Shown: in pieces, positions 10,058 through 42,899 of the stretch
How the letters are laid out: each line of letters begins with the position of its first letter
Position numbering within the stretch: position 1 is the first letter of the stretch
Assembly (NCBI GenBank): GCA_001275005.1
Contig: JWZX01002628.1
Location: 1 to 42,899 of the forward strand
Direction of reading: 5' to 3'
DNA length: 42,899 nt
DNA from: Chrysochromulina tobinii
Taxonomy: Eukaryota
Translations under genes and position numbers: made by a program
The notes under the pieces: generated by a model
What the model was told of the DNA's origin: nothing
Databases searched by the model: none
Seen by the model: the letters and a program-made list of their open reading frames with translations, nothing else

Positions 10058-10265
10058 GCCCGCCCGCCTCCGCTCGCGACACACGACCTCGCACTACGAT
10101 TCTTTTTGGAACCATTTTTGTGCATGTTTCAGAAGTTTCAGATTGTGTGAAAGTACTGTACATGTACTTTCTGAACTGTCAGAATAAACGAAGACGCTCA
10201 CGTTTTGTCTTGAATCTTTAGATCACAGAAACGATCGTTTGCGTGCATGCAACCGAGAAGGTCAA

Positions 10266-11268: not shown

Positions 11269-13845
11269 ATGCGGTGCGTTCGTCGTGGCACCGACAGCTT
11301 TCCGCAGCCGCTCTACGGAGAGGAGACTCCGCCTACGCCGATCACCGCCGACGAAAAGTATGCAAAGCGTGCAGGCCACGAATTGCACGCGATTCCATCG
11401 ATGTGCGACAGTGGAACGATGGATCCGACGAGTGCTGACACGCGCACGATGGCGTTGCTGCTCGGTGCCGGCTTTTTGACGCGCTTTTATGGCCTGAACT
11501 GGCCACCGCAGGTGGTCTTTGACGAGGTCCATTTCGGCAAATTTATTAGTGGCTACATCACGGGCCGGTACTTTTTCGACATCCACCCACCCCTCGGCAA
11601 GCTGCTCATTGCGGCGGTCGCCTGGTGGTCGGGGTACGACGGCACACAGCCCTTTGAGACGATTGGCGAGCACTACCACCCGCATGTCGACATCTTCATG
11701 CTGCGTGCGCTGCCGGCAACCTTCGGAGCCGCGCTGCCGCCGCTCATGTACGCCCTGGCGCGGGAGCTCGGCTGCTCGCGCACCGCTGCGACGCTTGTGG
11801 GCGGCCTGGTGCTGCTCGACGGTGCGATGCTCGTCGAGTCGCGTCTCCTGCTCACCGATAGCTCCCTCTTCTTTTGGGATTCTCTGCAGCTCCTGACAGC
11901 CCTCCGAGCTTCAGCGGCACCGCGCGGCACCGCAGCGTTTCACGCGCAGCTCGCGCTGACGGGACTTGCAATCGGCGCGGCAGTGTCGACGAAATGGACC
12001 GCGCTTGCCAACATGGGCGTCGTTGGCCTCGATTCGATCCACTCCCTTCTCAAGACCATGCATGCATCCGTCCACCGGCTGCAAGGGCAGCCACAGCAGC
12101 CACAGCCGTCACAGCCGCCACAGCCGCCACAGCCGCCACAGCCGCCACAGCCGCCACAGCCGCCACAGCAGCGGCACGAGCTCCCACATTCACAGCAACA
12201 ACATTCACAGCAATGGCACGATTGGTCGCCGCCCTCGTCGCCGCCGCTGACGTCGCCGCCTCAGCAGCGGGTGGCAACCAACGGCCCTATGGCAACCAAC
12301 GACCCCAATATGGCAACCAACGACCCAAATATGGCAGCCAACGACCTCGAGGCCCACAACCCGGAGGCTATCAGAGGGCGGCGCAGCCCGGAGCTCGTCC
12401 GCGACGGTAGTAGTTTGGTGGCAGTTGCCTGGGCGAACGGGCGTGGCGGCGGCTGCTCGCGCGTGCCTGCGGTGCTGCACCGACGCGTGCTACAAGCGAC
12501 CCCTCCGCGCCTGGGTGCTCTGATGGTAGCGCTGCAGCCAGTAGCATCCGAGTTTGGTGCTCGCTTTGTGTGGCTGTTGCTGCTGCCCTCGGCGGTCTAC
12601 CTCACTTGCATGGCGTTACACATTAAGCTGCTACCGTACGTGGGCCGCGGCGATAACTTCCACGATCGGCACTTTCGCTGCCGGCTGCTCCTTCTGCCCC
12701 GCGCCGGTGCCGGCGCCGCCGCCGAGACGCAGAGTCTACTCGCAGTGCCGCCGCCTGGGTGCGTCGCCGTAGGCTGCGACGCGTGTGCCGAAGTGACGCC
12801 TCTCAGCCTATGGCAGGCGATTATCTCTCTGAACAAACTCATGTTCACGGCGAATGCGAACATCAAGAGATCGCACGCCTTTGGCTCAGGCTGGAGGATG
12901 TGGCCACTGGCCTCCAAACCTGTGTTTTATTGGACGCTCAACACGCCGCACTTTTCGAGGCTCCGCTGGTGCCGCATCTACATGGCCGCCAACCCACTTG
13001 TCTGGTACGTGGGGCTCTTCCTGATGACCTCTGATGACCTCTGATGACCTCTGATGACCTCTGATGACCTCTGATGACCTCTGATCGCCTCCCTCATCAG
13101 GTACGTGGGGCTCGCGGGGATCGTGCTGCTGGCGCTCGTGCTCGCTTTCCTTGGAGCTCGCGGCCTCCTCCGCTCCGCCTATAGATGGGTACGCTGGAAG
13201 GACTCACGATCACGAGACAGGGCGCTCTCTGTCCTCCCACTGGCAGCGGCTGCGGCCAGCCATGCCGGTGCTCAGCACGGCGCTATCACGGGACCACGTC
13301 TGAGGAGAATCTCGGAGGAGAGTGACGAAACACATCTGAGGAGAATCTCGGAGGAGAAAGACGGAGGCCATCCGGAGCTCGGCCAGCGAGGATCTATCGA
13401 GGCTACTGTGGTGACGGCACCCTCATTGGCCTCGCCGTCGTGGCCGGCGTCAACGGCTCCAACGGCTCCAACGGCTCCAACGGCTCCAACGGCTCCTAGT
13501 CCTCTTGAAGTGCAGCTGCGCCACGGCTGGTTGCTGTTGGCCGGCCACGCCCTCGCGTGGCTGCCCTTTGCCGCCGTCGACCGCGTCGCCTTTCTGTACC
13601 ATTACATCCCCGCTCTGCTCTTCTCTCTACTGGCCGCCGGTCTCGTCTTCGATGTGCTCACGCAGCGAGCAGCCGCCTTCGCCCTTCCGCGAGGCTTCAC
13701 GGGGCGCGACCTCGCCGCTGCGCTGCTCCTCACACTTGCCCTCGCCAGCTTTCTTTATTTTATGCCCCTCTACCTTGGCTGGCCAATCGAACCGGGCGAT
13801 GGCGTCCACCGCATGCGTCGTCTAGATGTGTGGAGCGAGTCGTAG
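11269..13845 (+). CDS. PMT: Dolichyl-phosphate-mannose:protein O-mannosyltransferase (PMT/GT39); exons 11269-13004 and 13101-13845
   Basis: Motifs VVFDEVHFGKF, YFFDIHPPLGKLLI, ESRLLLTDS, VSTKWTAL, HAFGSGWRMWPL, IYMAANPLVWY and RVAFLYHYIPAL. Removing GT..AG 13005-13100 fuses the two ORFs in frame (..NPLVW|YVGLAG..). Confidence 0.92.
13005..13100 (+). mobile_element. Introner-like 96-nt intron: exon-copy 5' end, (CTGATGACCT)6 array, CCTCCCTCATCAG end
   Basis: GTACGTGGGGCTC at 13005 recurs at 13101. Six perfect decamers at 13021-13080. An in-frame stop means it must be spliced out. Confidence 0.8.
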
Positions 13846-24653: not shown

Positions 24654-24810
24654 GCCTGCCAGGTGTTGTGTCGTGGAGCTTGCGAGCGAGGGGCTTGTGA
24701 GCGAATGCAACGGACCCTCGCCCGCAAGGGGGCTTGCAAACGAGGCTTGCGATCGAGGGACCTGCGAGCGAATGCTGATCAGGATGCCGAGGCTGACGGC
24801 ATGCAGGCTG

Positions 24811-24947
24811 AATGCATGCTGAGGCGTCAGTCTGCCCAATGCATGCTGAGGCGTCAGTCTGCCCAATGCATACTGAGACGTCAGTCTGCCCAATGCATGC
24901 TGAGACGTCAGTCTGCCCAATGCATGCTGAGGCGTCAGTCTGCCCAA
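24811..24947. repeat. 27-bp minisatellite, 5 copies (AATGCATGCTGAGGCGTCAGTCTGCCC)
   Basis: Head-to-tail copies with only G/A variants and no spacers. Confidence 0.95.
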
Positions 24948-25213
24948 GAGCCTTTCAGCTGCTGCTAGCCATACTGTACACGAGCTATTAGCCATTAGAT
25001 GCCTTGCGGTGTCGACACAGTGGGTGTGCGGTGCGAGTGTGTGTACATGAGTTTCGTGTTGACATGGTTTCGTGCTCGGCTGTGCGTCCCGGGTCCGCTC
25101 GCCCGTACGGCCGTACCTCGCCGGCACTCGAGAATACCCCGCGGCCCGCGCGCGCGGCGCGTACGGCGTCGGGCGGTACCGGGCCGGGCGGAACGTACTT
25201 ATCTACTCGTTGC

Positions 25214-26156
25214 GAGCCCTGGCTGTCACCGAGCTGTCGAGCTGTCGAGGCTCCGTCGAGGCGCTGTCGAGGCGCTGTCGAGTCGACTGTCGAGGCGCTG
25301 TCGAGGCGCTGTCGAGGCCTTGCCTGTCGAGCCTGTCGAGCCTGTCGAGCTCCTGTCGAGTAGCTGTGTCGAGGCTGTCGAGGCTGACTGCAGGTGCCTG
25401 GGTGTCGAGCTGTCGTGTCGAGTAGCTGTCGAGTTTCTCTGTCGAGGCTGTCGAGTTTATATACACTGTCGAGTGTGCTGTCGAGCTCGAGCCTGACATG
25501 TAGCTTTGCTATTTTGCATGAAGCACTCTGACTCTCACAGCAGTAGGCCTATAGAGGACCCACACATAAACCACCAACCAAACTATAGTTCAAACGGATA
25601 AAGAACGCTCGGGCTCGGAGATCAGGACCCGTCACACCCTAACCCCTAACCCCTAACCCCTACATAGCCACAGGTTTCTTTACTGTTATACTGTAATACC
25701 CACCCTAAACCCCTACCTAGCCACTGGTTTCAAGACCAGAAAATGCAATCTTGATGCAATTCTAAGGAGAATTAGGTCAAAAAGAGCACGAAAGAGCACA
25801 AACGTGGAACGTTAGTGGAACGAAAGGTCCACCAGAACATCCATCATCCAGCCACCAAGTTGTGTAGTTGAGCAGTGGGTCCATCAACCTTCACCCTGAA
25901 GGAGTGGGGCTCTAACCTGGCTTCTCTCAGCTAGTGCTTGTAGATCCCAGTCTTAGACCTCGTGTTACCTCGTTAACCTCGTGTCGAGGTCTGTCGAGGT
26001 CTGTCGAGCTGTCGAGCTGTCGAGCTTGACACCTTGACGCACAGGCACATGGAGTCACGAGTAGCTCTGTCGAGTAACTGTCGAGTAGCTTTGACTTCTA
26101 GCTGTCGAGTAACTCTAACTGTCGAGTTTCCTGTCGAGTTGTCGAGGCCAGGGCTC
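25214..26156. mobile_element. Putative non-autonomous DNA element: 10-bp TIRs, TGTCGAG-rich arrays at both ends, AT-richer core
   Basis: GAGCCCTGGC at 25214-25223 and its reverse complement GCCAGGGCTC at 26147-26156. Dense TGTCGAG units at about 25235-25490 and 25980-26146. No clear TSD. Confidence 0.55.
25637..25662. repeat. Interstitial telomere-like repeat (CCCCTAA)n
   Basis: CCCTAACCCCTAACCCCTAACCCCTA, with a degenerate CCCTAAACCCCTA near 25703. Confidence 0.6.
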
Positions 26157-26861
26157 AATGCGAATGATGTATTATCGAATATGACGTGACTTGACTTGAC
26201 TTTGACACTTCGTCTTCGACTTCGTGACTCGTTGGTGTGCGCACTGCCGGGTTGTGTATGTCTTGGGTGTCGAATAATAATCTTTGGCTATGTGAATGAA
26301 TGAACGAAGCGAGTTTGTCAGGGGTGTGAACGGGTGTTGCTCTTCATGTGTGCACGATTTCGCTCGTACGTGCTTGTGTATGAATTCTCGATTGCGTGGT
26401 ACAAGTGTTGTACTTGTGTTGTGAATTTTTCGAACGTATGTTGTGGTGTAAATGACCCTTCACATGTTGCGCGATTGCGTTTGGATTGCGTTCTTGGTTC
26501 TACGTGTTGGTGTGTCGCCGAATCTCTCTTTTTTTGGCTACTTCTCCGCTCTCCGTCTGCATGTGTCTCATTTCGATGGTCCTTCGCAGCATCTCGCTCT
26601 TGAGTCTTGTTGTGAATGCTGTTTACGTGTGGTGGGGGTCCAGGGGTCCCCGAGCTACAATTGCCGAGCTAGTAGTAACCGCATCCGTATGTACGGTTGT
26701 ACGCCGGTCCGGTGTCTTGGGTGTCGAATTGTTATCTTGGCTGTACTTTGCCTGTGAATTCATGTATTGTATTGTATTGTTTTCACGGCGATGCTGCTTA
26801 CCGGCACCGGTACGTGAAGTGTCTGTTCATATGAATTCATTCATGAGTCTCGGCGCGCGGC

Positions 26862-28514
26862 ATGAGTTCCAGCTGGGCAGACGCGGAGGAAACCGAGGGG
26901 GAGGCAAGTTCGCCGGCGCCCACGCCGCCACCACCACCGTCAACTTCCACGCGACCTCCCGAAATCAGAGAAAGGAACTGTAGCGGATCTGTAGGGACCC
27001 AGCCATCAACGCCTCGTCGATCTGACACGATAGATGACATTGTGGCGGCCGCGGCCGCGATCGGGTTCGATGCCGGCGCATCCCGTTTCGGTGCACCCCG
27101 CTTTACAGCAGGCGCTTCCCGCTTTTGTGGGGGATCCCGTGACATGCCCGAGCACGACCGCACGAGCCACTTGAGCAACTATTCGATGCCCTCGAGCAGC
27201 TATCGGCACAATCCCAAGGCAGCCCCCGCGCGCTTTGGATCCGCGGGACGTAACAAGCACCGCCCGCTTGAAAAGGATGAAGACGTGCGCGGTGGCAGGC
27301 GGCTCGATGAGGACGGGATGGTGTATGACATGGGCGGCGGCGTATGCACCTACTTTCAGGACCGCATGCGCCAGTACCCATTTGCGACGGGCGCGGCCGG
27401 GCTTTCACTGCTGCGCCGGCTGCTCGTCGTCAACCGACGCGTCTTCGCGCTGTCCGACGCACGCGTGCTTGCGACGGACGACCCACGCCGGACGGCGCGC
27501 GAGGGCGAGTACCTGTACGTGGAGAAGCCGTCGCAGCGCTCGGCGCCAAAGGGCGCCGGGGTGGGGACTTGGAGCGACGAGGAGTACGCTCACCCGGGGC
27601 TTCAGGCGCTCTACCTTCGTCTCAAGTCGTTCCAGCGCTTCACCGAGAGCTGGGCCCTCTACGAGCGCGCCGCCGCGCTAGGCATCTTCGACCCTTGGGT
27701 GCGGCCCGCCGGTGTTCACGTCTCCGCCGAAGGAGCCACCCAAGGAGCCACCGCCCAAGGAGCCACCGCCCAAGGAGCCACCGCCCAAGGAGCCTCCGCC
27801 GAAGGCGCTACCGACGATAAGCTCGCAGCCGATGGCTGTACCAGCGCGGAGTCCGTCGGTGCGCGCTCTGCCAGTGGCGAGCGCTGTGGCGAGCGCCCAT
27901 TGGAGCGTCCCAAGCTGTGCGTGGCCTCGCTGGGAGGTGGGCCTGGCTACGAGCTGCTCGCACTCGCTTGGTATCTGCGCGAGCTCGCCACCAAGCGTGG
28001 CGTGCGCCCGCCGCGCCTCGACCTGGTGAGCCTCGACTTGCAGCCGTCGTGGGATCCTTTCGTTCGGGCGCTGCCGGAGCCGATGGGGGGCGAAAGCGAG
28101 AGCGAGCACGCCATGGAGGGTGCTGACACTACCTACCGTTTCGCACAGTGGGACATTAAGGCGGGCGTGGGCGCGTGCGAGGCGGCGGGCAGCGCGATCG
28201 ACCTGTGCCTGATCTCAAATGTGCTCGTCTACTGCACCGACGAACCGAGCGCGCACGTACTCACTTCGCTGCTTCAAAGTGGCGTGCGCGCCATCTTGGT
28301 CAACGAGCGGAACGGAGAGCAAAGGATGGTGGGCATGGTCCAAAAGCGCGGCGTCGTCGTGTGCAAGCTGCTTGACCAGAGTTCCGCCGCCGGCAGGGAC
28401 GACCGGCAGCTCCTCTTCTTGCCCGAGGGTACGCCCGCGCCCCCCCCCGTGCCACGTGACCTCGAGCACACCTTCCCAAACGTGCCCTACGAGGAAGCGA
28501 AGAAGGGCTCATGA
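26862..28514 (+). CDS. Hypothetical protein with a class I SAM-dependent methyltransferase-like C-terminal domain
   Basis: Motif I-like VASLGGGPGYE, LVSLDLQPSW, FAQWDI and DLCLISNVLVYC; disordered N-terminus; 15-bp GATAQ repeat at about 27731-27800. Confidence 0.65.
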   Translation: MSSSWADAEETEGEASSPAPTPPPPPSTSTRPPEIRERNCSGSVGTQPSTPRRSDTIDDIVAAAAAIGFDAGASRFGAPRFTAGASRFCGGSRDMPEHDRTSHLSNYSMPSSSYRHNPKAAPARFGSAGRNKHRPLEKDEDVRGGRRLDEDGMVYDMGGGVCTYFQDRMRQYPFATGAAGLSLLRRLLVVNRRVFALSDARVLATDDPRRTAREGEYLYVEKPSQRSAPKGAGVGTWSDEEYAHPGLQALYLRLKSFQRFTESWALYERAAALGIFDPWVRPAGVHVSAEGATQGATAQGATAQGATAQGASAEGATDDKLAADGCTSAESVGARSASGERCGERPLERPKLCVASLGGGPGYELLALAWYLRELATKRGVRPPRLDLVSLDLQPSWDPFVRALPEPMGGESESEHAMEGADTTYRFAQWDIKAGVGACEAAGSAIDLCLISNVLVYCTDEPSAHVLTSLLQSGVRAILVNERNGEQRMVGMVQKRGVVVCKLLDQSSAAGRDDRQLLFLPEGTPAPPPVPRDLEHTFPNVPYEEAKKGS

Positions 28515-29547: not shown

Positions 29548-30522
29548 TTAATCTTCATCAATCCCCCTTGCAGGACTGGAAAAGGCCCGCATCATCGAAG
29601 GGCGGCCAGGGGCCAGGGGGCGCGTCGGGGTCAACGCCTGGGCGGTGCGAGCGGCGGCGACTGCAGCGGGATCGAGAGGGGCCACACGAAGCAGATCGAG
29701 GGACTTGGAGAGGCCACTCGCCTCGCGCATCCTCTTCAGCCTCGTCGAGCGATGCTGCACCTCCATGCGCCACTGCGCCTGCAAGAACTCGCGCCGATCG
29801 TTGCCCTGCAACAGCTCGCGCAGCTCGAGCTGATGGGCCACCATGCGCCTCTTCCATACTTCGAGTGGGCGCACGTGCTTGTGCAGCCGCGCCAAGTGCT
29901 GCTCCTCCGCCTCGAATTCCGCATCAGGAGAGAGTGGGGCCGCGATGGCCTCCGATGCAGCCTCGTCCTCTTCCTCCTCCTCTTCCTCCTCCTCCTCCTC
30001 GGGTTCGGTGGGGAGTGCGTCGGGGGCAGCTACGGGTACAAGGTGCACAAGCTGTTCTGGCAGATCTACACACTCGACGCGGAGTTCGAGGAGTGCCCGA
30101 CGCTCCTTGCGCGTCACTGGTCTGCTTAGCTGGAGGAGGCGTGTGCGATCGCCACGGCTGTCGAAAGTAGGGCCTTCTGGTGATGGCGGCCCTTTGCTCG
30201 CATCGGCAATGGGCGATAAGGGCTCCCGAGAAGGCCTCACGCGGCTCAGTGGCCGAGCAGATGGCGTCATCAAACGCAGCGCCGTGCATCCATGGGGAAG
30301 CGGCTGCAAGAAATCACGTTTCCTAGACTTGGTCAGACCGACGCCTCTTGTAGCTACTTCCTTGGCTGCCACCATCTTTGCGGCGTGCACCAGCGCCTCA
30401 AGGTCATCTTCCGCCTTTGCTCGGCCTGCGCCTGCCTGAACTGCGAAAATGCGAGAGATGCTGCGACCGGCTCGAAATGGCGTCGATGTCCGTGAGTCCC
30501 ACGATGTTTGCCAAGCTTGCAT
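29548..30522 (-). CDS. Hypothetical protein with an acidic tract and coiled coil
   Basis: 324-aa ORF with poly-Glu; GC3 bias in the 3' half. Confidence 0.5.
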   Translation of the reverse strand: MQAWQTSWDSRTSTPFRAGRSISRIFAVQAGAGRAKAEDDLEALVHAAKMVAAKEVATRGVGLTKSRKRDFLQPLPHGCTALRLMTPSARPLSRVRPSREPLSPIADASKGPPSPEGPTFDSRGDRTRLLQLSRPVTRKERRALLELRVECVDLPEQLVHLVPVAAPDALPTEPEEEEEEEEEEEDEAASEAIAAPLSPDAEFEAEEQHLARLHKHVRPLEVWKRRMVAHQLELRELLQGNDRREFLQAQWRMEVQHRSTRLKRMREASGLSKSLDLLRVAPLDPAAVAAARTAQALTPTRPLAPGRPSMMRAFSSPARGIDED

Positions 30523-33107
30523 GGCTCTCTCTCTCTGCGTGCACTCTCTGCGTGTTTCGACCGAGGATGGCGGTAGTCGGTCAACTTGTTGGTCGGTGCG
30601 GTGGGTTCACCACAGGCGGGGTCAGCAGCTTACGACGCTTTCGCCGAGCCTCTTTTCGGAAGCGTGATGAAACGTTTGGGCTCACTGGCCCGCCATGGTG
30701 TGAATGTATGTGTGTGAATGTGAATGTGTGTCTGTGTGACTTCTGACACTGGTCTACCTCACATGTCCACACAGTGTCAATTAAACAGAAATGAGACTGA
30801 TATGAGATTTGTCTTCGCGTGCGCATGCGTGCAGACGCTGGCGCCCATGGTTGAGCGTTGACCCCTCGTCGGTCGTCGCGGCTTCGTTGCTCCCCCTCGG
30901 TAAGACGGTAAGGGCTAAGATCCATTGCTTAGGGCCCTTACGCCTTAGCGGTTTGGACCGTTTTGGAGATTTTGGTGTTCGTATTACTTATAAGACCTCG
31001 CAACCCGTCGCGTAGAGGCTCCTACGTCCTCACTCCTCTACTCCGTTGGTAGTCGGCTAGAGTACGTGACGGTGACCTCCCTCGACGTGCTCGCGACCCG
31101 CCAAGGCGACCACGGTATTGATATTGATTGTCAAGACTATAGACTTGAAAAAACTCGAACTGTGGAGGATCTGAGTGATACACTGAGTGTGTTCTTCTAT
31201 CTTCATCCGACGCAACGGCCACTACACGCCATACATATCTACGATTTTGTGCGGCACACATCGCCAGTTCGCCACAGACGAGACTCGTGCGTCCGTCGTC
31301 GCCTTTTCGTTTCTCGTGCGTCTCGTCGACCGCTTAACCCAACGTTTCTTGTTATGCCATTTTCGCCGCGGCACTCGTAGCCGCACGTTGCCTCTCGCAC
31401 GTTGCGCCATCGCCGCCTTGCAGCACCGCGCCTTGACCAGCCTGTGGCCCTCCTCGTCACAGCCCGTCGTCTTGGAGGGCCCTGTGGGGAGGAGTATACA
31501 GCAGCACAGGCATGGCCGTGCGAACCACCCCGTTTCCCGCACCACTCCCTGGCAGGGCAGGGAAGCAGGCAACGCGGGAGCTTCCCCGCATACCTTTCTG
31601 GCAGCGTTGCTGCCGAAGGGGCATCTCCCTAGAAGTTGAGAATCCCAGTCGGGTGAGAGCTCTCCCACCAACGTTGCTCGTCACTCCATTTTGATCTTCA
31701 CAGCATGGGGTGGGACGGGGGCGGCCACGAGGCGGGGACGCGAGGAGTGGGAGGCGCACACGCGCGTAGCTATGCGTCGCTTGGAAGCCAAGAATCGTCA
31801 CCGAAGCACGCAAAAAGAGCGCCCGGCGCGGAGAGTCGGAAAGAAGAGAGAGGAACCATCATCTCATCGGCATGGTGCCGTGACCCTCCGCTGCGCGCAA
31901 CGGCAGAGGTGACGTCGTGGAGGACTCAGGCGAAAGGGGCGGGAAGGGTATCGGGGAGGGAGCTCGCCGCGAGGTTCAGGCGCGCGCTATCCCAGCGGCG
32001 GCACGCATGCGCACACGCCCCACTACACGAGGGCACATGGCGATCCGGGCGGGCAGAGCGGACCGTCGGTCGGCTCTCTAATTATCCCGACTGGGACCCC
32101 ATCATACACGATCGTCATGGTTCCGTACTCGTCGAGCCAGTCCAGGTGCTCCACATCTGCGGCGCTCGAGGCCGCTGCCAGGAGAAAGGAACCGTGTTGC
32201 ACGAGACCAGTGCACGGTGAGAATGGGTTGGGGCAGCGGGCGAGGGAGGGGGCGCGCAGCGAGAAGCTCCTAGCGCATGGCCGCTTGCAAACGCCCCCAC
32301 GCCCTCGGCGGGCCCTTCCCCCCCACCCTCTCCAGCCTCCCCGGCGGTTCAGGATCGCAGCCTCGGCTGAAGTCAGCGGCGTGAGCGGTGTCCTTCGCGC
32401 CGGCTTCTTCGATTTGGGGACGAACCAGCACTGCAGATGGTTGTTCTTCGTTCGCAGGCGCGTGATGGGCCATGGTGACGACATCAGCGCAGCGCGGCGC
32501 AGACGACCTCTGCGCTTGGATTCACTGGGTCCAACCTCCTCGGTCTGCTGCTGCTGTGAAACACAACGCGGCGCAATTCTAGTTTCTTCTCCGTTCACAC
32601 ACGATAATTTTGCGAGATCCTCATTTTTGTTGTCCTTTCTCCTTCGTGACACAGGTCCTTTGTGCCCCCCGAGGGGGGAGTGCAGATTCCGTCCCCCGGA
32701 GTGGGTGGGGGAGGGGCGGGGGGCGAGGGTGCAGGCTTGGTGCAGGCGGGGGCGAGACTCGGACACGCGCGCGCGCGCTCCCGCCGGAGGCGTTTGAGGA
32801 TTGCGCGCGAGTCGAGGCAGTCGTGGACGACGAGTGGTCAGTGGAGTGAGCGCGGGGGGACGTCCGCGACATGTACTGACTGACATCTCGACACTCAACA
32901 CACCGCACCCGACACACTACCTAAAAAACCTCGCGCTGGACAAGAAAGACAGCTGGATCAACCCGGGAACCGGGTCGGAACCGGGGGGTCCGGGATACCG
33001 AAGTACGGATACACATCAGAACACTCTCCGCCCGAGTTCACCCGAGACATTTGCCCCGAAACTCCGCCCGGTGCGCGCGGTGACCGAGGTAAGATAACGG
33101 TGAGACG

Positions 33108-34849: not shown

Positions 34850-35521
34850 TCATCTGTTGCTCGACGATACCCCTGCCGCCTCCGGCCGCTCCTTTCGCCG
34901 CCGCCTCCTCCCGCCGCCGCCGCGGCCGCCGCCTCCTTTGGCCGCCGTGGCCGCCGCGCGTTGCCCACGCCGCTCGCGCCTCGCGCCGGGGGGCCTCCTC
35001 TTGGGCGCTCCATTGCGATAGACCTGCTGCTCGCACCGCTCGTGCTCGTATGGCGTCGTCTCGGGCTGCATATGCTCCCACGCAAACGAAAAGGCCGCCG
35101 GCCCCTTGAGGTTATGCACGAGCACCGAGCTGTTCGCAGGCGGCCGGTACGTGGCGCCGCCCCGCCGCTTGCGCTCCCCCTGCGGATGGCATGCAATGTC
35201 ATGCACGAGGGGCCCGATGTCGATGTAGTGCACCGTGCGAGGCGCTCGCGACACCATGTACCCGGTGCTCGTATCCTCAAACTTTTGCCATTGGAGCGTC
35301 TCGTGCTCCGGACCGGCGGCGTCGGCCACCCACTGGGTCACCTCGGCAGAGGTTGCGACGTGCTGGAGGAGGGCGGCGGAGAAGAAGTAGCCCGCGCCAG
35401 TGCCGTAGGGAAAAGGCAGCACCGCGCCGCGCGTGTCGCAGCTCTCCACATAGCCGGGCGTGCTGGGAGTACCGAAACTGGAGCCAAAGTTGTTGAGGGC
35501 CGCCGAGAGGTCCCACCCAAA
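34850..35521 (-). pseudogene. 5'-truncated paralog of the adjacent GT31-like glycosyltransferase (C-terminal half only)
   Basis: FGWDLSAALNNFG..CD..GAVLPFPYGTGAGYFFSAA..QWQKFEDTSTGY..YRPP..VHNLK aligns with the upstream gene. An in-frame TAA (35522-35524) directly precedes it, and no splice acceptor or N-terminal half is present. Confidence 0.7.
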
Positions 35522-35604: not shown

Positions 35605-35720
35605 CCATATTAGGTTGCGCTTTTGTGCGGGTTTCGTCGCGCCCATATTAGGTTGCGCTTTTGTGCGGGTTTCGTCGCGCCCATATTAGGTTGCGCTTTT
35701 GTGCGGGTTTCGTCGCGCCC
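35605..35720. repeat. 38-bp perfect tandem repeat, 3 copies
   Basis: CCATATTAGGTTGCGCTTTTGTGCGGGTTTCGTCGCGC starts at 35605, 35643 and 35681. Confidence 0.95.
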
Positions 35721-37598
35721 AGTCAGCGCCCGTGCGCCTTCGGCCGCGACCCCTGCCGCGGCCGCTGCCACCCTCGGCAAGCGGCGTGGTGGCCTCGGCA
35801 GCGCTTGCCGGAAGCGAGGCCGCCTCTAGTCGAGGTCGTTTCCTGCCAAGGCCACCCCTGCTTTTGTAGGCTTCCTCGTGATTGCTGCTCAGTCGGCCGC
35901 GGCGGCGGATGCGCGTGCCTCCGTCGCGTGCGCACTGCTCGTGATCATAAAGCGTAGCCCCCTGGCCCATGGCGTGCGACGCATAGTGGAAGCCGCCGTG
36001 CTTGAGGTTATGCACGAACAGGGTCAGGTTACAGGGCGGGCGGTAGAGGCCGCCTCCCTTGGCCTTGAGTGCACCGTTTTTATGGCACACGAAGTCGTGT
36101 ACCCAGCGTCCGACATTGACGTACAGGATAGTGAACGGCGCGTAGCTGAGCCAGTAACCAGTAGAGGTATCCTCAAACTTCTGCCACTGGATCGCGTCGC
36201 GCGTGGGGCCGGCCGCTTGGCGTACCTGATGAGGGAGGTCACCAGAGGCCATCAGAGGTCATCAGAGGCCGAGCTCGGCGTACCTGATGAGGGAGGCCAT
36301 CAGAGGTCATCAGAGGGGCCAGCCGCTTGGCGTACCCAGTTGATCACGGCCGCGTCGGTGGCCACCCATCGCAGCGTCGCCGCGCTGAAGACATAGGCCG
36401 CACCCGTGCCGTACGGGAACGGCGGTACGGCACCGAGCTTGTCGCACGGCGGGAAGTAGCTAGGGCACGGGAACGAGGAGCACGGCTTTCCAAACGTGGC
36501 GCCGTAGTTCACGAGCGCGGCCCCCACACCCCATCCGAAGCCACATCGGTCGTTGCGCACACCCGTACTGCGCGCCTGCGGCACCACTCCAGCCCAATTG
36601 ATGGCCCCTATGAAGAGGTGTTCCTTACAACGGAGCTGTGCTCCGAGCGCCACGAGCAGCGCAAGGTTGGGCGCAGTGTCATCGTCAATCTTGCCCACAT
36701 ACGGCACGTGCGGCAGCATGCGCGCCGCGTGCTGGAAGAATGCGTACTGCTTGAACGTCGGCATGCCGCGGCCCAGTCGTGTGAAGTTGGAGTAGGCCGT
36801 CTTCGCTGTAATGAGCGCACGTGTCTCGGGCACATCGAGCAGGAGCAGGTCAGCATGCGCGCCCTGCTCCGCGATGAGCGCGGCCGTCTCATCGGCGGGG
36901 CCGTGCGCGGAGAGCAAGAAGCACGCGGCGACGCTGCGCCCGTAGGCAGCATGCGCCATCCACGACGTCCGCGCAGCATCGCGCCGTCCGCTGCCTGGCG
37001 ACAGCGCCGTCGTCGGCAGGCCGAGCAGGATGAGCAGCCCGTCGTCGAGCGAGCGCGAGGATGAGCCGCACCGAAGCGTACCGCGCGGCAGCCGCGTGAG
37101 AGCGCCGGCGCTGGCCTCGCGCAGCCGCGTCCGCAGCAAATCGCTGTCGGCCAGCGGTGCAACGAGACGAGTCGACGTCGTCCCACGAAGTGCGCTCGAG
37201 GTGAAGCTTTCGCCAGGTCCGTCAATGTCCGCAGGCAGAGCCACAGTGCGCTCTGAAGTGGACGTTCGATGATCGAAAGCTGCGCATTTGGGAAGCTTTC
37301 GCTGAGCGTGTGCCGCAGCGTCAAGTGAGAAGTCCTCGCCTCGCATGGGACCGTTGAGGTCAACGGACGGGTAGCGGCGCGAGAGCGCCTGCGAGAAGCA
37401 GCCCTTGTAGTCGCGGTTCGGGCACAGCGCTAGGAGCAGAGACACGTTGACGTTCTCACCCATGGGCACATTCGGCAGCTCGCGCAGCGGGCGGTCGCGA
37501 GGGTGTGCCATGGGCACACCAGCTCGAGGTTTGACGCGAAGGGTCAGCAGTGTGAAAGAATGGATGGAAAGAAGGGCGGCCAACAGCGCGAGAGCCAC
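35686..37598 (-). CDS. GT31-like (beta-1,3-galactosyltransferase-type) glycosyltransferase; exons 37598-36336 and 36225-35686
   Basis: N-terminal signal anchor, RRDAARTSW, EQGAHADLLLLD, YVGKIDDDT (DxD), PFPYGTGAAYVFS and FEDTSTGYWL. Removing 36226-36335 restores INW|VRQAAGPTRDAIQWQKFED, colinear with the paralog. Confidence 0.85.
36226..36335 (-). mobile_element. Double Introner-like intron (52 nt + 58 nt units, head-to-tail)
   Basis: Minus strand reads GTACGCCAAGCGGCTGGCCCC-TCTGATGACCTCTGATGGCCTCCCTCATCAG|GTACGCCGAGCTCGGCC-TCTGATGACCTCTGATGGCCTCTGGTGACCTCCCTCATCAG, followed by exon GTACGCCAAGCGGCCGGCCCC. Confidence 0.8.
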
Positions 37599-37826
37599 AA
37601 GCGGCGCCCGTCTCAGCGCCTCAAAAAACTAGTACCGGTACTGTACTGTACTTTCCTAATGAAGCACATTTTGAAACGCGTCACAGTGAGCGCGCAACGC
37701 GTCGCACCCATAACACAGCGCAAGCGTGTTGGAGGCCCTGCAAGAGCGGCACTCTCCGTCACAGAAAAAAGTTGGGCACCTGGTCAATCGAATTGACTCG
37801 CCCGTCATCGTTCGAAAAAAAGAAGC

Positions 37827-39221: not shown

Positions 39222-39653
39222 TCTTTATCGAGAGTGAATGAGTGATGTGAAAAATACGCTCTTCGACTCGCTATAGACGCTATAGTATGCATGAGTACTC
39301 ACCCTAGATTGTCACTAGAGCCGCGGCTCCTGTCCTGCCCCTGCAAGCTCTATTAATCCGCCTACCGCGGTCGGTACGGTCGGATAAATATTCGCTGTAC
39401 GGTACCCATGACGGTACCCGAGTATCCATGATGTCGCTATCTCAAACGCGCATCGTCGGCGCCAGACCCTCTCTTGTACCGTACAGCCGTAAACTGTGTC
39501 TCGTTGGTGCGCGGCGGGAGAACGAACGGTCGTGCTCTCACGGATACTTCATACGCTTTCTTGCTCAAGACTCTTGAAGCGAACTGACTGTTGTTGTATC
39601 TTGTAAGGTGGAGATGTTCCGCGCCGTACGTGCTCTCGCCATTGCTGAGGACC

Positions 39654-39715
39654 ATGCCCCCCATCATCAGGTCAAGCGCCGTCAATGCCCCCCATCATCA
39701 GGGCAAGCGCCGTCA
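39654..39715. repeat. 31-bp tandem duplication
   Basis: ATGCCCCCCATCATCAGG(T/G)CAAGCGCCGTCA at 39654 and 39685. Confidence 0.85.
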
Positions 39716-40057: not shown

Positions 40058-42899
40058 TCAGTGTGGGGCTACGGCGGATGGCTGCTGGTTGGACTCTCGA
40101 GCTGCCGGCACACGAGGCGCTCGCCGACGAGCCCACTGTCGGCGGTGTGAACGCATCGCCCGCGGCAAAGGGGGCTCGTCTGTCGGCAGTGGCGCCCATC
40201 GTTGTGGTGGTGGTGGTGGCTGTGATGGCACGGCTGCTGCTTCTCTTGGGCGCTGAACACGATGTTCGGGTGGTGGGAGACGCTGGGCCTGAGGCATCGT
40301 GCTCGTCACATCGGCATGCGGCAAGTCAGGGCGCGCCGACGCCCGATGGAGGTCCACCGACGACCTTCGAAGCTCATGGACGCCTCCGTGACTGGAGAGC
40401 ATGCGCGACGGTGGTGAGTGTACATCAGATGAGCGGAAGGTCGTAGCCGCGGGGCTCCAAGCTGGCTGGACTGCTGGCTGGACTGCTGGCTCTGGTTCGA
40501 TAAACCACGCGACAACGAACCAGTGGCGGCCGCTTGCAATGTCGTGGAGCGCTTCCAATGTCACGGTGTTCACGATCATGATGTGGACACGGCCGTGTTC
40601 GTGCGCTTGCTCAAGGGTGCGCTGGAAGTACGCATGCCATTGGTTGAATGAACCTGGGCCAGCGAGCCACGATGGATCGGTATTTGGCGCGTCGGGGTTG
40701 TGGAGGGTGACGAGCTTTTGAACTTCGGCCGTCTCCAGAAATTGGCCGATTGACGTATCGCGAGTGTGACCGAGCTCGACGTTTCGATCGGCGACGTATT
40801 GCTTTTGGTTTGGGATTTGCGCGCTGGCCATGTCCATCATTGTGAATTTGAGGCCCTCGCGGCGGAGGGAGCACGCCCACGCTGCACTCAGGTAGCCACT
40901 CGCGTTTGGGAGCTGGGCCTTGTTGAAGAGGGTGGTGGGGGTGAGGCCAGCAGACGCCATGCAATCGGCCGACTCGCGAGAGCCGCTGCTCGACATGAAA
41001 TCCATGACAATGAAGCGACCAGCCCGCTGTGGCAGCGTTCTTGAGCTGCCGGCACGCGAGGCGCTCGCCGACGAGCCCACTGTCGGCGGTGTGAACGCAT
41101 CGCCCGCGGGAAAGGGGGCCAGTCTGTCGGCAAAGGGGGGCAGTGGGCTCCAACCCGGACTGCTGCTGAACGATCGGCCAGAGGCCCCCTGGCTACTTGG
41201 CGAGCGATAGGATTGACTCTTGTACGTGAGGAGCTGCCCCCTCAACTCGCGGAGCAACGGCAGAGCTCTGGAAGGCGAAGGTCGCGCGTTGGGCCGAGGA
41301 CGACCGGCCAGCGCAGCGAGGCGCAGCCGGCAAAGCAATGTGTGTTTGAGTCGCCTCGGGGGCGTCGCAGGGACGATCCTCAGCAAGACAAGCGACCGCC
41401 ACAAAACCTGCCAGAGACCCACAGCCACCTCGCGCAGCGGCGCATCGGCTGGCGCCTCAGGTGGCGCTTCGAGCACAGCGTCTGCCATCGCTCGCCAACG
41501 GATGACGAGGTGCTGCAGCCGTTGACCGCGGCGGCTCATCCTCAGCCAATGAGCACGTACGCGCCGGTACACCGAATCGCCGCGCGACCGGCGCAATCGG
41601 TGCGCCTCAAGCCACCGACGCGCGTGTGTTTGAACAACCGACTCCGCGAGCGAGCGCATGTGGGCAAGCTTGGCCTCTACTGCGCGCCCGCGTACGGCTC
41701 GCCTGTGCGCGGTCATGCGCACTCCCCTTTGCAGAGTGGTCGCCGCCCTCGCCGCCCGCTCCAGGCGCGCCGCCTTCAACGTGGCGGCCAAATCACGCTT
41801 CATCTTGCGCACCTGCAGCGTGCGGCGCACAAGGGCCTGTAACCGCGTCGCCGCCGCCTCGCGTTCCTCCGCTGCGGCGTACGCCCGCTTCCGTGTCCGC
41901 TTCGCCAGCAAGGAGCGTGCACTCGCTTGCAGCGACACTGCCGCCGTCGTCTCCTGCGCCGCACGTTGCGCCATCTGCGCCTTGCGCTGCTGCTCGATGT
42001 TACGGCAGCGTCGGCGGATCAAGCACCACAGCAGCATGGATCCGAAGAAGGCCAACGCGAGCAGTACGAAGAAGAGAATGTCGGGAAGCGGCGGCGGCAG
42101 CCCGAAAGGGCAGTTTTCAAAGACGAGGCACGAGGGGGGAGTGGGCGAAGGTAACGCGAGCAGCTGCGACGTCTGCCGCATCACCACCGCACTCGTAAAC
42201 GGGCCCTCGAGAGCGTCCACAGTGAGCACGGACGTGCCGGTGTAGTGAACCCCGATAGCGGCAGAGAGGCTTTGGGGGGTCTGCGCCGCCAGCACAACGT
42301 CGTAGTTTGTTGCCACGGTGCGGTTGGGCGCGAAGACGACGGCTGTGGCACGCACGGAGGCTGGCTCCACCCTTAAAGTCACCATCAGAGGGGCGGTACC
42401 ATCGCTTTGAAGGATGCCGAGAAGAGCCGCTACTCCTTTTCGAAGGGCAAGCCGCTCAGAGTCGCCAAATTGCTCGACAGTCAACGACTGGAGCAGCATG
42501 ACAATATAGACGTCGTAACCTTCGTAAGCACGCCCTGGCGGTGCGGGTGGCCAAGAGGGTGGCGAAGGAGGTGTCTGGAAGGGCGAGGCAGGTGGGCTCG
42601 ATGAGGACGGTGGTGGCTGCAGCGGCGGCGGCGGCGGCGGTTGGAAAGTCAGCGGAGATAACAGAAAAGGACTGCCCAGCGGTGGCGGATGGTGTGGAGG
42701 CAGCGACGGGGGCGACGGGGGTGCTGAGGGTGGCGGTGAGGGTGGAGGTGGCGACGGCGGCGGCGAGGGCAGCGGTGGCGAGGGCGGCGGCAGCGAGGGA
42801 GGTGATGGCAACGGCGGTGGCGGCGAGGGCGGCGGCGGCGAGGGTGGCGGCGGCGAGGGCGGGGGCAAGGGCGGCGGCGAGGGTGGCGGCGGCGAGGGT
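40058..42899 (-). CDS. Extensin-like SPPPP surface protein with TM helix and IQ motifs, fused to a peptidase-like segment; 5' end lies beyond the window
   Basis: SPPPP repeats, TM ILFFVLLALAFFGSMLLWCLI and IQ-like motifs SLQASARSLLAKR, RLQALVRRTLQVR, TLQRGVRMTAHRR and VVQTHARRWLEAH. Confidence 0.7.
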   Translation of the reverse strand, partial: PSPPPPSPPPLPPPSPPPPSPPPPSPPPPLPSPPSLPPPSPPLPSPPPSPPPPSPPPSAPPSPPSLPPHHPPPLGSPFLLSPLTFQPPPPPPLQPPPSSSSPPASPFQTPPSPPSWPPAPPGRAYEGYDVYIVMLLQSLTVEQFGDSERLALRKGVAALLGILQSDGTAPLMVTLRVEPASVRATAVVFAPNRTVATNYDVVLAAQTPQSLSAAIGVHYTGTSVLTVDALEGPFTSAVVMRQTSQLLALPSPTPPSCLVFENCPFGLPPPLPDILFFVLLALAFFGSMLLWCLIRRRCRNIEQQRKAQMAQRAAQETTAAVSLQASARSLLAKRTRKRAYAAAEEREAAATRLQALVRRTLQVRKMKRDLAATLKAARLERAARAATTLQRGVRMTAHRRAVRGRAVEAKLAHMRSLAESVVQTHARRWLEAHRLRRSRGDSVYRRVRAHWLRMSRRGQRLQHLVIRWRAMADAVLEAPPEAPADAPLREVAVGLWQVLWRSLVLLRIVPATPPRRLKHTLLCRLRLAALAGRPRPNARPSPSRALPLLRELRGQLLTYKSQSYRSPSSQGASGRSFSSSPGWSPLPPFADRLAPFPAGDAFTPPTVGSSASASRAGSSRTLPQRAGRFIVMDFMSSSGSRESADCMASAGLTPTTLFNKAQLPNASGYLSAAWACSLRREGLKFTMMDMASAQIPNQKQYVADRNVELGHTRDTSIGQFLETAEVQKLVTLHNPDAPNTDPSWLAGPGSFNQWHAYFQRTLEQAHEHGRVHIMIVNTVTLEALHDIASGRHWFVVAWFIEPEPAVQPAVQPAWSPAATTFRSSDVHSPPSRMLSSHGGVHELRRSSVDLHRASARPDLPHADVTSTMPQAQRLPPPEHRVQRPREAAAVPSQPPPPPQRWAPLPTDEPPLPRAMRSHRRQWARRRAPRVPAARESNQQPSAVAPH
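40099..41132. repeat. 90-bp direct repeat pair (40099-40188 and 41043-41132) bracketing about 850 bp
   Basis: GAGCTGCCGGCAC(A/G)CGAGGCGCTCGCCGACGAGCCCACTGTCGGCGGTGTGAACGCATCGCCCGCGG... occurs twice with few mismatches. Confidence 0.9.

Follow-up and report, generated by a model that had tools for sequence, protein, structure and literature searches.

A stacked two-unit insert, apparently of an intron-making element, in a GT31 gene of Chrysochromulina tobinii and the possible origin of its second unit

In a GT31 gene of Chrysochromulina tobinii, located on contig JWZX01002628.1 of assembly GCA_001275005.1 (positions 1 to 42,899 were analysed and are called the window), we found the coding sequence interrupted by a 110-nucleotide (nt) insert composed of two abutting units, each of which begins with GTACGCC and ends with CCTCCCTCATCAG. 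By its sequence the insert belongs to a family of high-copy, apparently intron-making elements found in a Chrysochromulina-related haptophyte. The insert is real and segregates against an uninterrupted copy of the gene. As to how the second unit arose, the reading that we favour, and to which we give about an even chance, is a local copying error with a template switch and not site-specific re-insertion. The origin of new spliceosomal introns is a long-standing question to which introners offer the best current answer, and a presence/absence polymorphism of this kind catches intron gain in action.

Layout, reading frame and support of the insert

Read on the minus strand, the order of the sequence is ...ATCAACTGG (exon) / GTACGCCAAGCGGCTGGCCCC-TCTGATGACCTCTGATGGCCTCCCTCATCAG (unit 1) / GTACGCCGAGCTCGGCC-TCTGATGACCTCTGATGGCCTCTGGTGACCTCCCTCATCAG (unit 2) / GTACGCCAAGCGGCCGGCCCC... 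(next exon), and the features of the locus are as follows.

36336..37628, minus strand: upstream coding part of the GT31 gene, an open frame ending ...AAVINW; its codon TGG ends at 36336
36335-36284, minus strand: unit 1 of the insert, 52 nt, GTACGCC...CCTCCCTCATCAG
36283-36226, minus strand: unit 2 of the insert, 58 nt, GTACGCC...CCTCCCTCATCAG, head-to-tail with unit 1
36315..36335, minus strand: upstream target copy, 21 nt, GTACGCCAAGCGGCTGGCCCC, source of the outer donor GTACGCC
36284..36314, minus strand: element body 1, 31 nt, two 10-nt repeats and the acceptor tail TCCCTCATCAG; inner acceptor at 36284
36267..36283, minus strand: inner segment, 17 nt, GTACGCCGAGCTCGGCC, bearing the inner donor
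36226..36266, minus strand: element body 2, 41 nt, three 10-nt repeats and the acceptor tail; outer acceptor at 36226
36205..36225, minus strand: downstream target copy, the first 21 nt of the next exon (VRQAAGP)
35686..36225, minus strand: downstream coding part of the GT31 gene, an open frame that aligns with the paralog and with uninterrupted orthologues
34850..35521, minus strand: neighbouring GT31 paralog without an insert at the corresponding site (TGG|GTGGCC at 35330/35329)

Unit 1 consists of a copy of the start of the next exon, 21 nt with one mismatch, followed by TCTGATGACC TCTGATGGCC TCCCTCATCAG, and unit 2 of the 17-nt GTACGCCGAGCTCGGCC followed by TCTGATGACC TCTGATGGCC TCTGGTGACC TCCCTCATCAG, so that the first 20 nt of the two bodies are common and they differ by one repeat unit. 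An earlier, sequence-only reading of this DNA had described two stacked units of one family at these positions, the first of them opening with the exon copy; the minus-strand sequence bears out the former, and the direct repeat around the insert (22 nt with the preceding G counted, one mismatch, 110 nt apart, 36315-36336 versus 36205-36226) the latter. The units agree over 7 nt at their donors and over 13 nt at their acceptors, CTGAT motifs lie 16 and 26 nt before the acceptor in each unit, and at the inner boundary, 36284/36283, an acceptor abuts a donor within the intron (AG|GT, in the context CATCAG|GTACGCC). Throughout the window CCTCCCTCATCAG occurs exactly three times (13088, 36226 and 36284) and with up to two mismatches six times, compared with 1.55 expected (2 of 100 shuffles reached six), and GGTACGCC was likewise present six times, compared with 0.95 expected (none of 100 shuffles reached six).

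The upstream frame matches the Pfam domain PF01762 (Galactosyl_T) with an E value of 3.2e-08. Excising all 110 nt rejoins the frame as ...VINW|VRQAAGP..., gap-free against the adjacent paralog (...VTQW|VADAAGP...), and excising unit 1 alone leads to a stop after 14 further codons, unit 2 alone to a stop after 11. Translation and paralog alignment thus uphold the earlier proposal that taking out one unit shifts the frame and taking out both restores it. That proposal also held the paralog to be intron-free at the homologous site and to lack GTAC there, and at 35330/35329 the paralog indeed reads CAGTGG|GTGGCCGAC without an insert. Distant orthologues (P0122-P0124, with 66-75% identity to the exon-2 part) have uninterrupted frames of 559-666 residues running through ...W|VR.AAG..., and the uninterrupted gene is therefore probably the older state.

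The sequence-only reading had named an assembly artefact as one outcome that would overturn it. Misassembly of a high-copy repeat is an extremely improbable source of the second unit: although word depth over the element core (36243-36320) runs from thousands to tens of thousands, which favours such an error, contigs of 60-61 nt holding the unique inner segment together with both bodies occur at ordinary depth in all three DNA-labelled runs, and both outer junctions are present in gene calls from other assemblies. Contigs of the three runs bridge the inner boundary without mismatch (36239/40-36299) and cover the passage from unit 2 to exon 2 without mismatch (36178-36267/8). For the exon 1/unit 1 junction of the interrupted form no contig over 36315-36335 is listed in these runs, a hole that proves nothing, and this junction is covered by the gene calls from other assemblies. 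The uninterrupted form was also found in all three runs, as a 150-nt contig that leads from exon 1 straight to exon 2 and skips exactly 110 nt.

Both forms are also found among gene calls, of which we used the 15 listed members of the 90% protein cluster of the GT31 gene (118 members, 40 read). Nine of these are uninterrupted, running through INWVRQAAGPTRD on contigs of up to 28 kilobases (kb), and six are interrupted and end ...VRQAAGPSDDL* inside unit 1 (other assemblies). Frames restarting in unit 2 (MASGDLPHQVRQAAGP..., MASGDLPHQ|VRQ), again from other assemblies, make up 7 of 15 listed on contigs of up to 21 kb, and a second frame type with a different tail, MASDGLPHQ|VRQ, from a more diverged lineage accounts for 5 of the 15 frames listed for this cluster and for 12 of 13 of the following cluster. 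This diverged lineage (P0147, P0157-P0176) carries an insert at the same site with another acceptor-side tail, its frames starting MASDGLPHQ|VRQAAGPTRN.... The insert is old enough to be common to two lineages.

The two forms are further distinguished by nearby residues: five of the six interrupted gene calls have those of the window (S, V, S, A, S) and eight of the nine uninterrupted ones another set (N, M, G, G, G), the ninth, P0121, deviating at part of the positions. These sets match window positions 36386 (T/C), 36397 (G/C) and 36129 (T/C), and the variants at 36129, 36386 and 36397 (I/V, S/G and A/G, respectively) tell the interrupted from the uninterrupted GT31 copy. At 36129 both variants are present in the DNA-labelled run X1 at similar word depth; since contig word depth is not copy number, a reading of alleles versus duplicates from depth was dropped, and the two forms could be alleles, strains or recent duplicates.

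The element family and its insertion footprint

A family member consists of (TCTGATGACC)n, that is, of 10-nt repeats each holding CTGAT, followed by a pyrimidine tract and CAG; we take the CTGAT of each repeat to fit the branch-site consensus CTRAY. Every member is flanked by two copies of 8-45 nt of the host gene, and the upstream copy, which mostly starts with GT or GC, can act as a donor. The family was sampled by one scan of metagenome contigs with a 17-nt piece of the repeat, 300-nt flanks being taken, and this sample is biased towards loci rich in canonical repeats. It contained at least 143 family loci, at least 137 of them unique, and the counts that follow refer to the loci listed from it. 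In one DNA-labelled run the element core drew 4006 contigs over 20 kb, mostly on the element, with a word depth of 16059 in the bin of the insert.

An automated parse, which was only partly checked by eye and in which a few short parses are spurious, gave 89 repeat-flanked units with duplications of 8-45 nt (median 19) and a median unit length of 84 nt. The number of repeats varies widely between members. The shortest unstacked canonical unit in the sample measures 60 nt (L119), and single units of 60-62 nt are found at L119, L006 and L079; the 52- and 58-nt units of the GT31 gene are thus at or below the low end of the lengths. The duplications start with GT in 48 and with GC in 10 of the 89 units (58 together), with GTAC in 12 and with GTGC in 15. 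On these counts we rejected the G^GTAC target site that the sequence-only reading had put forward, and the GTAC start looks like the general donor consensus rather than a target site.

The window holds a second member of the family.

13005..13100, plus strand: single-unit predicted intron of 96 nt in a protein O-mannosyltransferase gene

This member has a 13-nt target duplication, GTACGTGGGGCTC (13005-13017 and 13101-13113), and at least seven perfect 10-nt repeats, and the Pfam domains PMT and PMT_4TMC are divided between its two flanking frames. The family resembles introners in being a multi-copy mobile sequence that would make spliceosomal introns and that is present or absent among close relatives. 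Many similar copies lie at unrelated positions (the two loci of the window and the metagenome loci), a duplicated target stands on both sides (22 nt at the GT31 gene, 13 nt at 13005, and the 89 flanked units), and one and the same site is occupied or empty among close relatives (six interrupted and nine uninterrupted of the 15 listed gene calls). No inverted ends were noticed in the family sequences read, a systematic search for them not having been made. A phase test on the metagenome loci found five of nine units with unambiguous frames to be in phase; this test is powerless in G+C-rich DNA and wrong for stacked or offset cases. Three further stretches of the window, 29956-30010, 34893-34940 and 42606-42647, were rejected as family members because they are (GGC)n-like or GAG-like low complexity, and the long-distance contig joints in the window were rejected as family events because they concern unrelated repeats.

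The two sides of the insertions carry different marks. At the donor end, the last bases of the host copy coincide with the repeat phase over at least 2 nt in 15 of 29 usable units, the mean overlap being 1.79 (by hand, with the artefact row L017 left out) versus 0.32 in a control of the other nine phases (with the L017 row included). At the acceptor end, the host copy begins directly after the fixed terminus of the element (...CATCAG); some members have no CATCAG end, for example L063, L111 and L125, and are predicted to be spliced from an AG|GT that the duplication itself contains. It is common for filler to separate the target copy from the repeats, the array not starting at the boundary in 23 of 53 units.

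Target-primed insertion of non-long-terminal-repeat (non-LTR) retroelements and short interspersed nuclear elements (SINEs) leaves long variable duplications, priming microhomology and a repeat tail on the priming side, together with a defined or truncated far end and possible flank carry-over and template jumps. The family bears the same marks and differs in lacking an evident poly(A), RNA intermediate or reverse transcriptase partner and in the element being only ~30-200 nt long; a DNA-repair route would leave the same marks as well. Since the duplications are variable in length and longer than those of cut-and-paste elements (8-45 nt, median 19), the target end shows microhomology with the template tail (15 of 29 units), the far end is defined and some members may be truncated, we infer target-primed copying. 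The element would then be laid down by synthesis primed at a staggered break, starting through microhomology in the repeat tail of a template and proceeding to the fixed end of that template. The route may be a target-primed one resembling that of SINEs or of long interspersed nuclear elements (LINEs), or an equivalent repair synthesis, whose marks would be identical. If it is target-primed, a possible partner would be a reverse transcriptase element ending in (GGTCATCAGA)n, or any partner with a CTGATGAGGGAGG end.

Origin of the second unit

The case for a template switch comes from the inner segment, which shares 7 contiguous nt and scattered positions with the local target copy but 14 of 14 nt with the exon flank of another family locus, L121. 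From 2 nt before element body 1 to 14 nt into the inner segment, 47 nt are identical to the end of the L121 intron plus 14 nt of its exon; body 1 equals the last 31 nt of that intron, a tail found in only 4 of 139 loci, and, if one 1-nt gap is allowed, the match continues as far as a CCTC in phase with the repeat. In a comparison of 4912 post-acceptor flank pairs, each drawn from two different loci, common prefixes of 7, 8, 9 and 10 nt were seen 9, 3, 2 and 3 times, and the only one longer than 10 nt is the 14-nt match of GT31 and L121. For the inner segment to descend from the local target copy, no fewer than one substitution plus either a 2-nt indel or two substitutions would be needed, along with a shortened end. 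In addition, run X1 has a 38-nt contig (36270-36307) whose ends fall exactly at the points of divergence between the window and L121 and whose word depth is 168.8, compared with 80.7 and 84.2 in its neighbours, a weak hint of a second locus with this junction in the same culture.

On the favoured reading, synthesis at the GT31 locus, or a later repair, would have switched to an L121-like family member, copied its acceptor tail and 14-18 nt of its exon, and returned at the CCTC microhomology, which would have created the inner CAG|GT. If the inner segment is indeed a captured exon flank, dispersed genomic copies serve as templates for new ones, and this would narrow the possible mechanisms.

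Several points weigh against this reading. The word GCCGAGCTCG is over-represented in the sampled loci (6 per 85 kb versus 0.08 expected, ~70-fold), so the match to L121 could be due to chance (rough estimate 0.003-0.05). A 10-nt flank match of similar kind, between the inner segment of L094 and L122, joins loci with different tails and looks accidental; with the tails differing, we rejected it as a second capture. Over its first 7 nt the inner segment matches the local target copy exactly, as would a decayed third copy or the product of a second insertion, and the common first 20 nt of the bodies with their one-repeat difference are equally explained by plain tandem duplication. The related lineage has a same-site insert with a different tail (MASDGLPHQ), and the insert may therefore be older, and may have undergone more decay, than assumed. 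Lastly, no reverse transcriptase or transposase partner turned up, no search aimed at one having been made.

How stacks arise elsewhere in the family bears on the two alternatives. The sequence-only reading had suggested a genome-wide count of multi-unit introns, and we made a count on the metagenome sample instead, scoring a locus as stacked if two element ends follow in a row and the stretch between them starts with GT or GC, is at least 35% repeat and has no unmasked run longer than 40 nt. By this rule 12 of the 101 loci with an element end are stacked, the GT31 locus included; inspection by eye added four (L034, L067, L068 and L118), and L044, L120, L122 and L136 were dropped because real exons lie between their ends. 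At 14 stacked pairs the last 24 nt of the units differ by a median of 2.5 mismatches versus 13 in unrelated pairs, a value that none of 20,000 resamples reached, and tails differing at no more than three positions are seen in 9 of the 14 stacked pairs versus 7.7% of unrelated pairs (L075 and L095, flagged and not inspected, as well as L032 were kept out of this test). At L002, L029, L068 and L067 even rare tails are common to both units. Since the tails of stacked pairs are nearly identical and often rare, most stacks are probably local copies of a neighbour. As a separate observation, at L032 (410-571) a whole family intron with a 19-nt exon piece is duplicated in tandem, giving a 19-nt mini-exon between identical introns.

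This sibling signal speaks for a plain tandem duplication, in which unequal exchange or slippage between the 21-nt target copies doubled target copy and element and the middle copy then decayed. Minisatellites can reportedly arise by expansion between flanking direct repeats (Haber and Louis are said to have described this in 1998), and the family offers fitting examples: L002, L017 and L092 have three perfect copies of a host piece (24, 31 and ~26 nt, respectively), with the target copy in the junction and sibling bodies, and L067 (330-720) has six acceptor-type ends 58-68 nt apart and at least five near-identical 58-nt units, each starting GTCCAGATC. At the GT31 locus body 2 would simply be body 1 with one more repeat unit. 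We nevertheless regard this origin as unlikely here, because the middle copy is at least three events away from both outer copies and 4 nt shorter whereas the outer copies differ at only 1 of 22 positions, the upstream and middle copies are both intronic and equally free to change, and the changes would happen to have recreated the exon flank of another locus, L121.

In the second alternative, a first insertion duplicated the target and left the donor-side junction intact, and a second, independent copy landed at the same junction; the inner segment would then be the shorter target copy of the second event plus filler, and filler of this sort is common in the family, as noted above. At L049 (8 versus 21 nt) and L068 (9 versus 34 nt) the two units share their host start base and have host copies of unequal length. 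L094 (88-395) has three units in a row, the ~27-nt duplication of the first insertion spanning the exon end and 8 nt of an older family intron, and by its sequence appears to be a nested insertion beside an existing copy. Four stacked pairs have unlike tails, with 11 (L049), 11 (L118), 18 (L071) and 7 (L115) mismatches in 24. From these layouts and pairs it follows that repeated insertion probably also happens in the family. Moreover, transposon tandem dimers with a target duplication in the junction are documented to arise by double insertion, followed by expansion through unequal exchange (McGurk and Barbash 2018, PMC5932611). For the GT31 locus we consider double insertion rather unlikely, though less so than the plain duplication: the family has no preference for GTAC sites (12 of 89), both bodies are unusually short (two and three repeats, in units of 52 and 58 nt compared with the median of 84) with the first 20 nt in common, 9 of 14 stacked pairs are sibling-like, and the 14-nt identity with L121 would be a coincidence. 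The re-insertion idea of the sequence-only reading therefore stands in part: a duplicated target does recreate donor and junction, so that further units can be tolerated, and repeated insertion does appear to occur in the family, but there is no GTAC target and re-insertion is not the favoured cause here.

Removal of the insert and comparison with known systems

Splicing of the full 110-nt insert is likely. RNA contigs of two of the three RNA runs, X12 and X13, contain a clean 110-nt join with GT..AG ends on the gene strand. Because the same join also exists as DNA, these contigs do not prove splicing. The joined contig of X13 carries the variants of the window at both 36386 and 36129, one on each side of the join, which speaks for its origin from the interrupted copy by splicing; with 50 and 96 nt between these positions and the join, more than the word length of the assembler, a mosaic contig is possible. 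The contigs of X17, one stopping at 36226 and one starting at 36315, fit the joined and the unjoined form alike, and a further RNA run, X14, has no contigs over the exons.

If, instead, the interrupted copy were a broken allele in which the insert stays unspliced, the joined RNA contigs would come from the uninterrupted copy only. The presence of the join as DNA in all three DNA-labelled runs and in 9 of the 15 listed gene calls agrees with this, as does the X12 contig, which carries the variant of the other copy at 36386. We judge it improbable all the same, given the X13 contig with both window variants, the intact flanking frames of the interrupted copy and the complete splice signals of the insert, the retention of the insert in two diverged lineages, and the many long open frames that members of the family interrupt.

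The simplest removal would be a single step from the outer donor at 36335 to the outer acceptor at 36226. As each unit has a donor at its start and an acceptor at its end, any number of units would be removed together. Other possible orders begin with unit 1, whose removal recreates TGG|GTACGCC, or with unit 2; the mRNA is identical by every route, and this would account for the tolerance of stacks. That stepwise, recursive splicing is the main route, which is compatible with any origin of the insert, is in our view possible but doubtful. In it the acceptor transcribed first, 36284, would pair with the outer donor to give TGG|GTACGCC, after which unit 2 is removed, or the order would be reversed, with an intermediate 36284|36225 that joins the tail of unit 1 to an exon version ...AAGCGGCC. 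The identity of the donors over 7 nt and of the acceptors over 13 nt, together with each unit's own branch-type CTGAT motifs, speaks for this route, and so do the single-unit family introns of only 60-62 nt. Against it, every unstacked unit among the loci listed is longer than the 52- and 58-nt units of this insert, and no junction for a 52- or 58-nt removal is listed in the contigs of any run, which weighs little since contigs drop rare forms. The inner site is not conserved, the whole insert being absent from the near-identical gene copy and from the orthologues.

A joint reading, in which a target-primed polymerase jumps between intron templates, exon scraps move between genes and the stacked CAG|GT is used recursively in introns of ~110 nt, is quite unlikely as a whole. 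Were it true, the intron would be modular, with a unit number that drifts freely and with a donor, branch sites and an acceptor in each unit. In any case, the inner CAG|GT pairs constitute a natural test of stepwise splicing in very short introns, and whole units that can be added without harm to the gene make introns behave like higher-order minisatellites.

Introners occur in Micromonas, Aureococcus, Symbiodinium, Polarella, fungi and many others. In introners of Aureococcus, of Symbiodinium and of classes 4/5 in Polarella, the element carries the acceptor and the duplicated target gives the donor (10.1101/2020.10.14.339549), and the family found here is like them in that its acceptor is carried and its donor recruited from the target duplication. 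In Aureococcus, Symbiodinium and some Polarella introners the duplications have a fixed length of 4 or 8 nt and the ends are mostly inverted (10.1101/2020.10.14.339549), those in a Chrysochromulina metagenome-assembled genome have 4-bp duplications with the donor carried and the acceptor co-opted (10.1101/2022.06.06.494994), and introners that are non-LTR-derived or of unknown mechanism are also on record (PMC12130899). Whereas in the described families target duplications have a fixed length of 3-8 nt and terminal inverted repeats are the rule, the present one has donor-giving duplications that are long and variable (8-45 nt), a minisatellite body made of 10-nt repeats with branch sites in variable copy number plus an acceptor, and common stacking; inverted ends, as said, were not noticed in the sequences read. 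In the introner papers and full-text searches covered, we found no description of stacked, tandem, nested or recursive introners.

Tandem transposon dimers resemble the stacks in their head-to-tail copies, in the copy of the target duplication in the junction and in the contribution of both insertion and exchange. They differ in that they are substrates of satellite DNA while the stacks lie in coding genes, where they would be tolerated because each unit is a complete intron, and in that the junction piece at the GT31 locus looks foreign and not local. Drosophila introns are spliced recursively at zero-nucleotide-exon ratchet points (10.1101/006163), which likewise consist of an acceptor abutting a donor (CAG|GT) inside an intron, splicing to which recreates a donor. 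Ratchet points, however, are conserved functional sites that serve very long introns, whereas the inner site of the GT31 gene lies in a 110-nt intron, would be a by-product of duplication or insertion, and is a candidate only.

Fungal stwintrons, or spliceosomal twin introns, are complex intervening sequences of two introns (PMC9024468, PMC12403724), and they share with the present insert the two-intron complex and the spread of sequence-similar copies to new positions. A stwintron requires two ordered steps because its inner intron lies within a splice signal of the outer intron, whereas the GT31 units abut and could be removed in one step; as the GTACGCC and CCTCCCTCATCAG signals are intact in each unit, we rejected the insert as a stwintron. 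Introns can also be gained by tandem duplication of an exon piece containing AGGT (PMC4974935). There too a duplicated exon piece provides one splice site, but the resulting intron is all host sequence and the GT31 insert has a foreign repeat body between the two copies.

Some further features of the window were observed. At 39640-39701 (plus strand) a 31-nt tandem duplication, ATGCCCCCCATCATCAGG(T/G)CAAGCGCCGTCA twice, contains CATCAG|GT, and one RNA contig (X12, 39438-40025) passes through it without a joint. At least three tandem copies of a ~30-nt unit (...AATGCATGCTGAGGCGTCAGTCTGCCC...) lie at 24800-24900 (plus strand), at the edge of the stretch 24901-26901, which has word depths in the thousands in run X1 and is probably a dispersed repeat. 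Very high word depth in a DNA-labelled run also marks 30237-30903 and 42243-42899, the latter a GGC/GAG-rich low-complexity coding repeat. On the minus strand, 4730-10093 contains a 1787-residue open frame that encodes EF-hands together with 14 stretches matching the Pfam 'Decapeptide repeat region' (E value 4e-205), and the window also encodes a conserved amine oxidase, for which Chrysochromulina tobinii (70%) and a Chrysochromulina parva genome model (67-69%) were the closest relatives with a name, and a chlorophyll-binding antenna protein.

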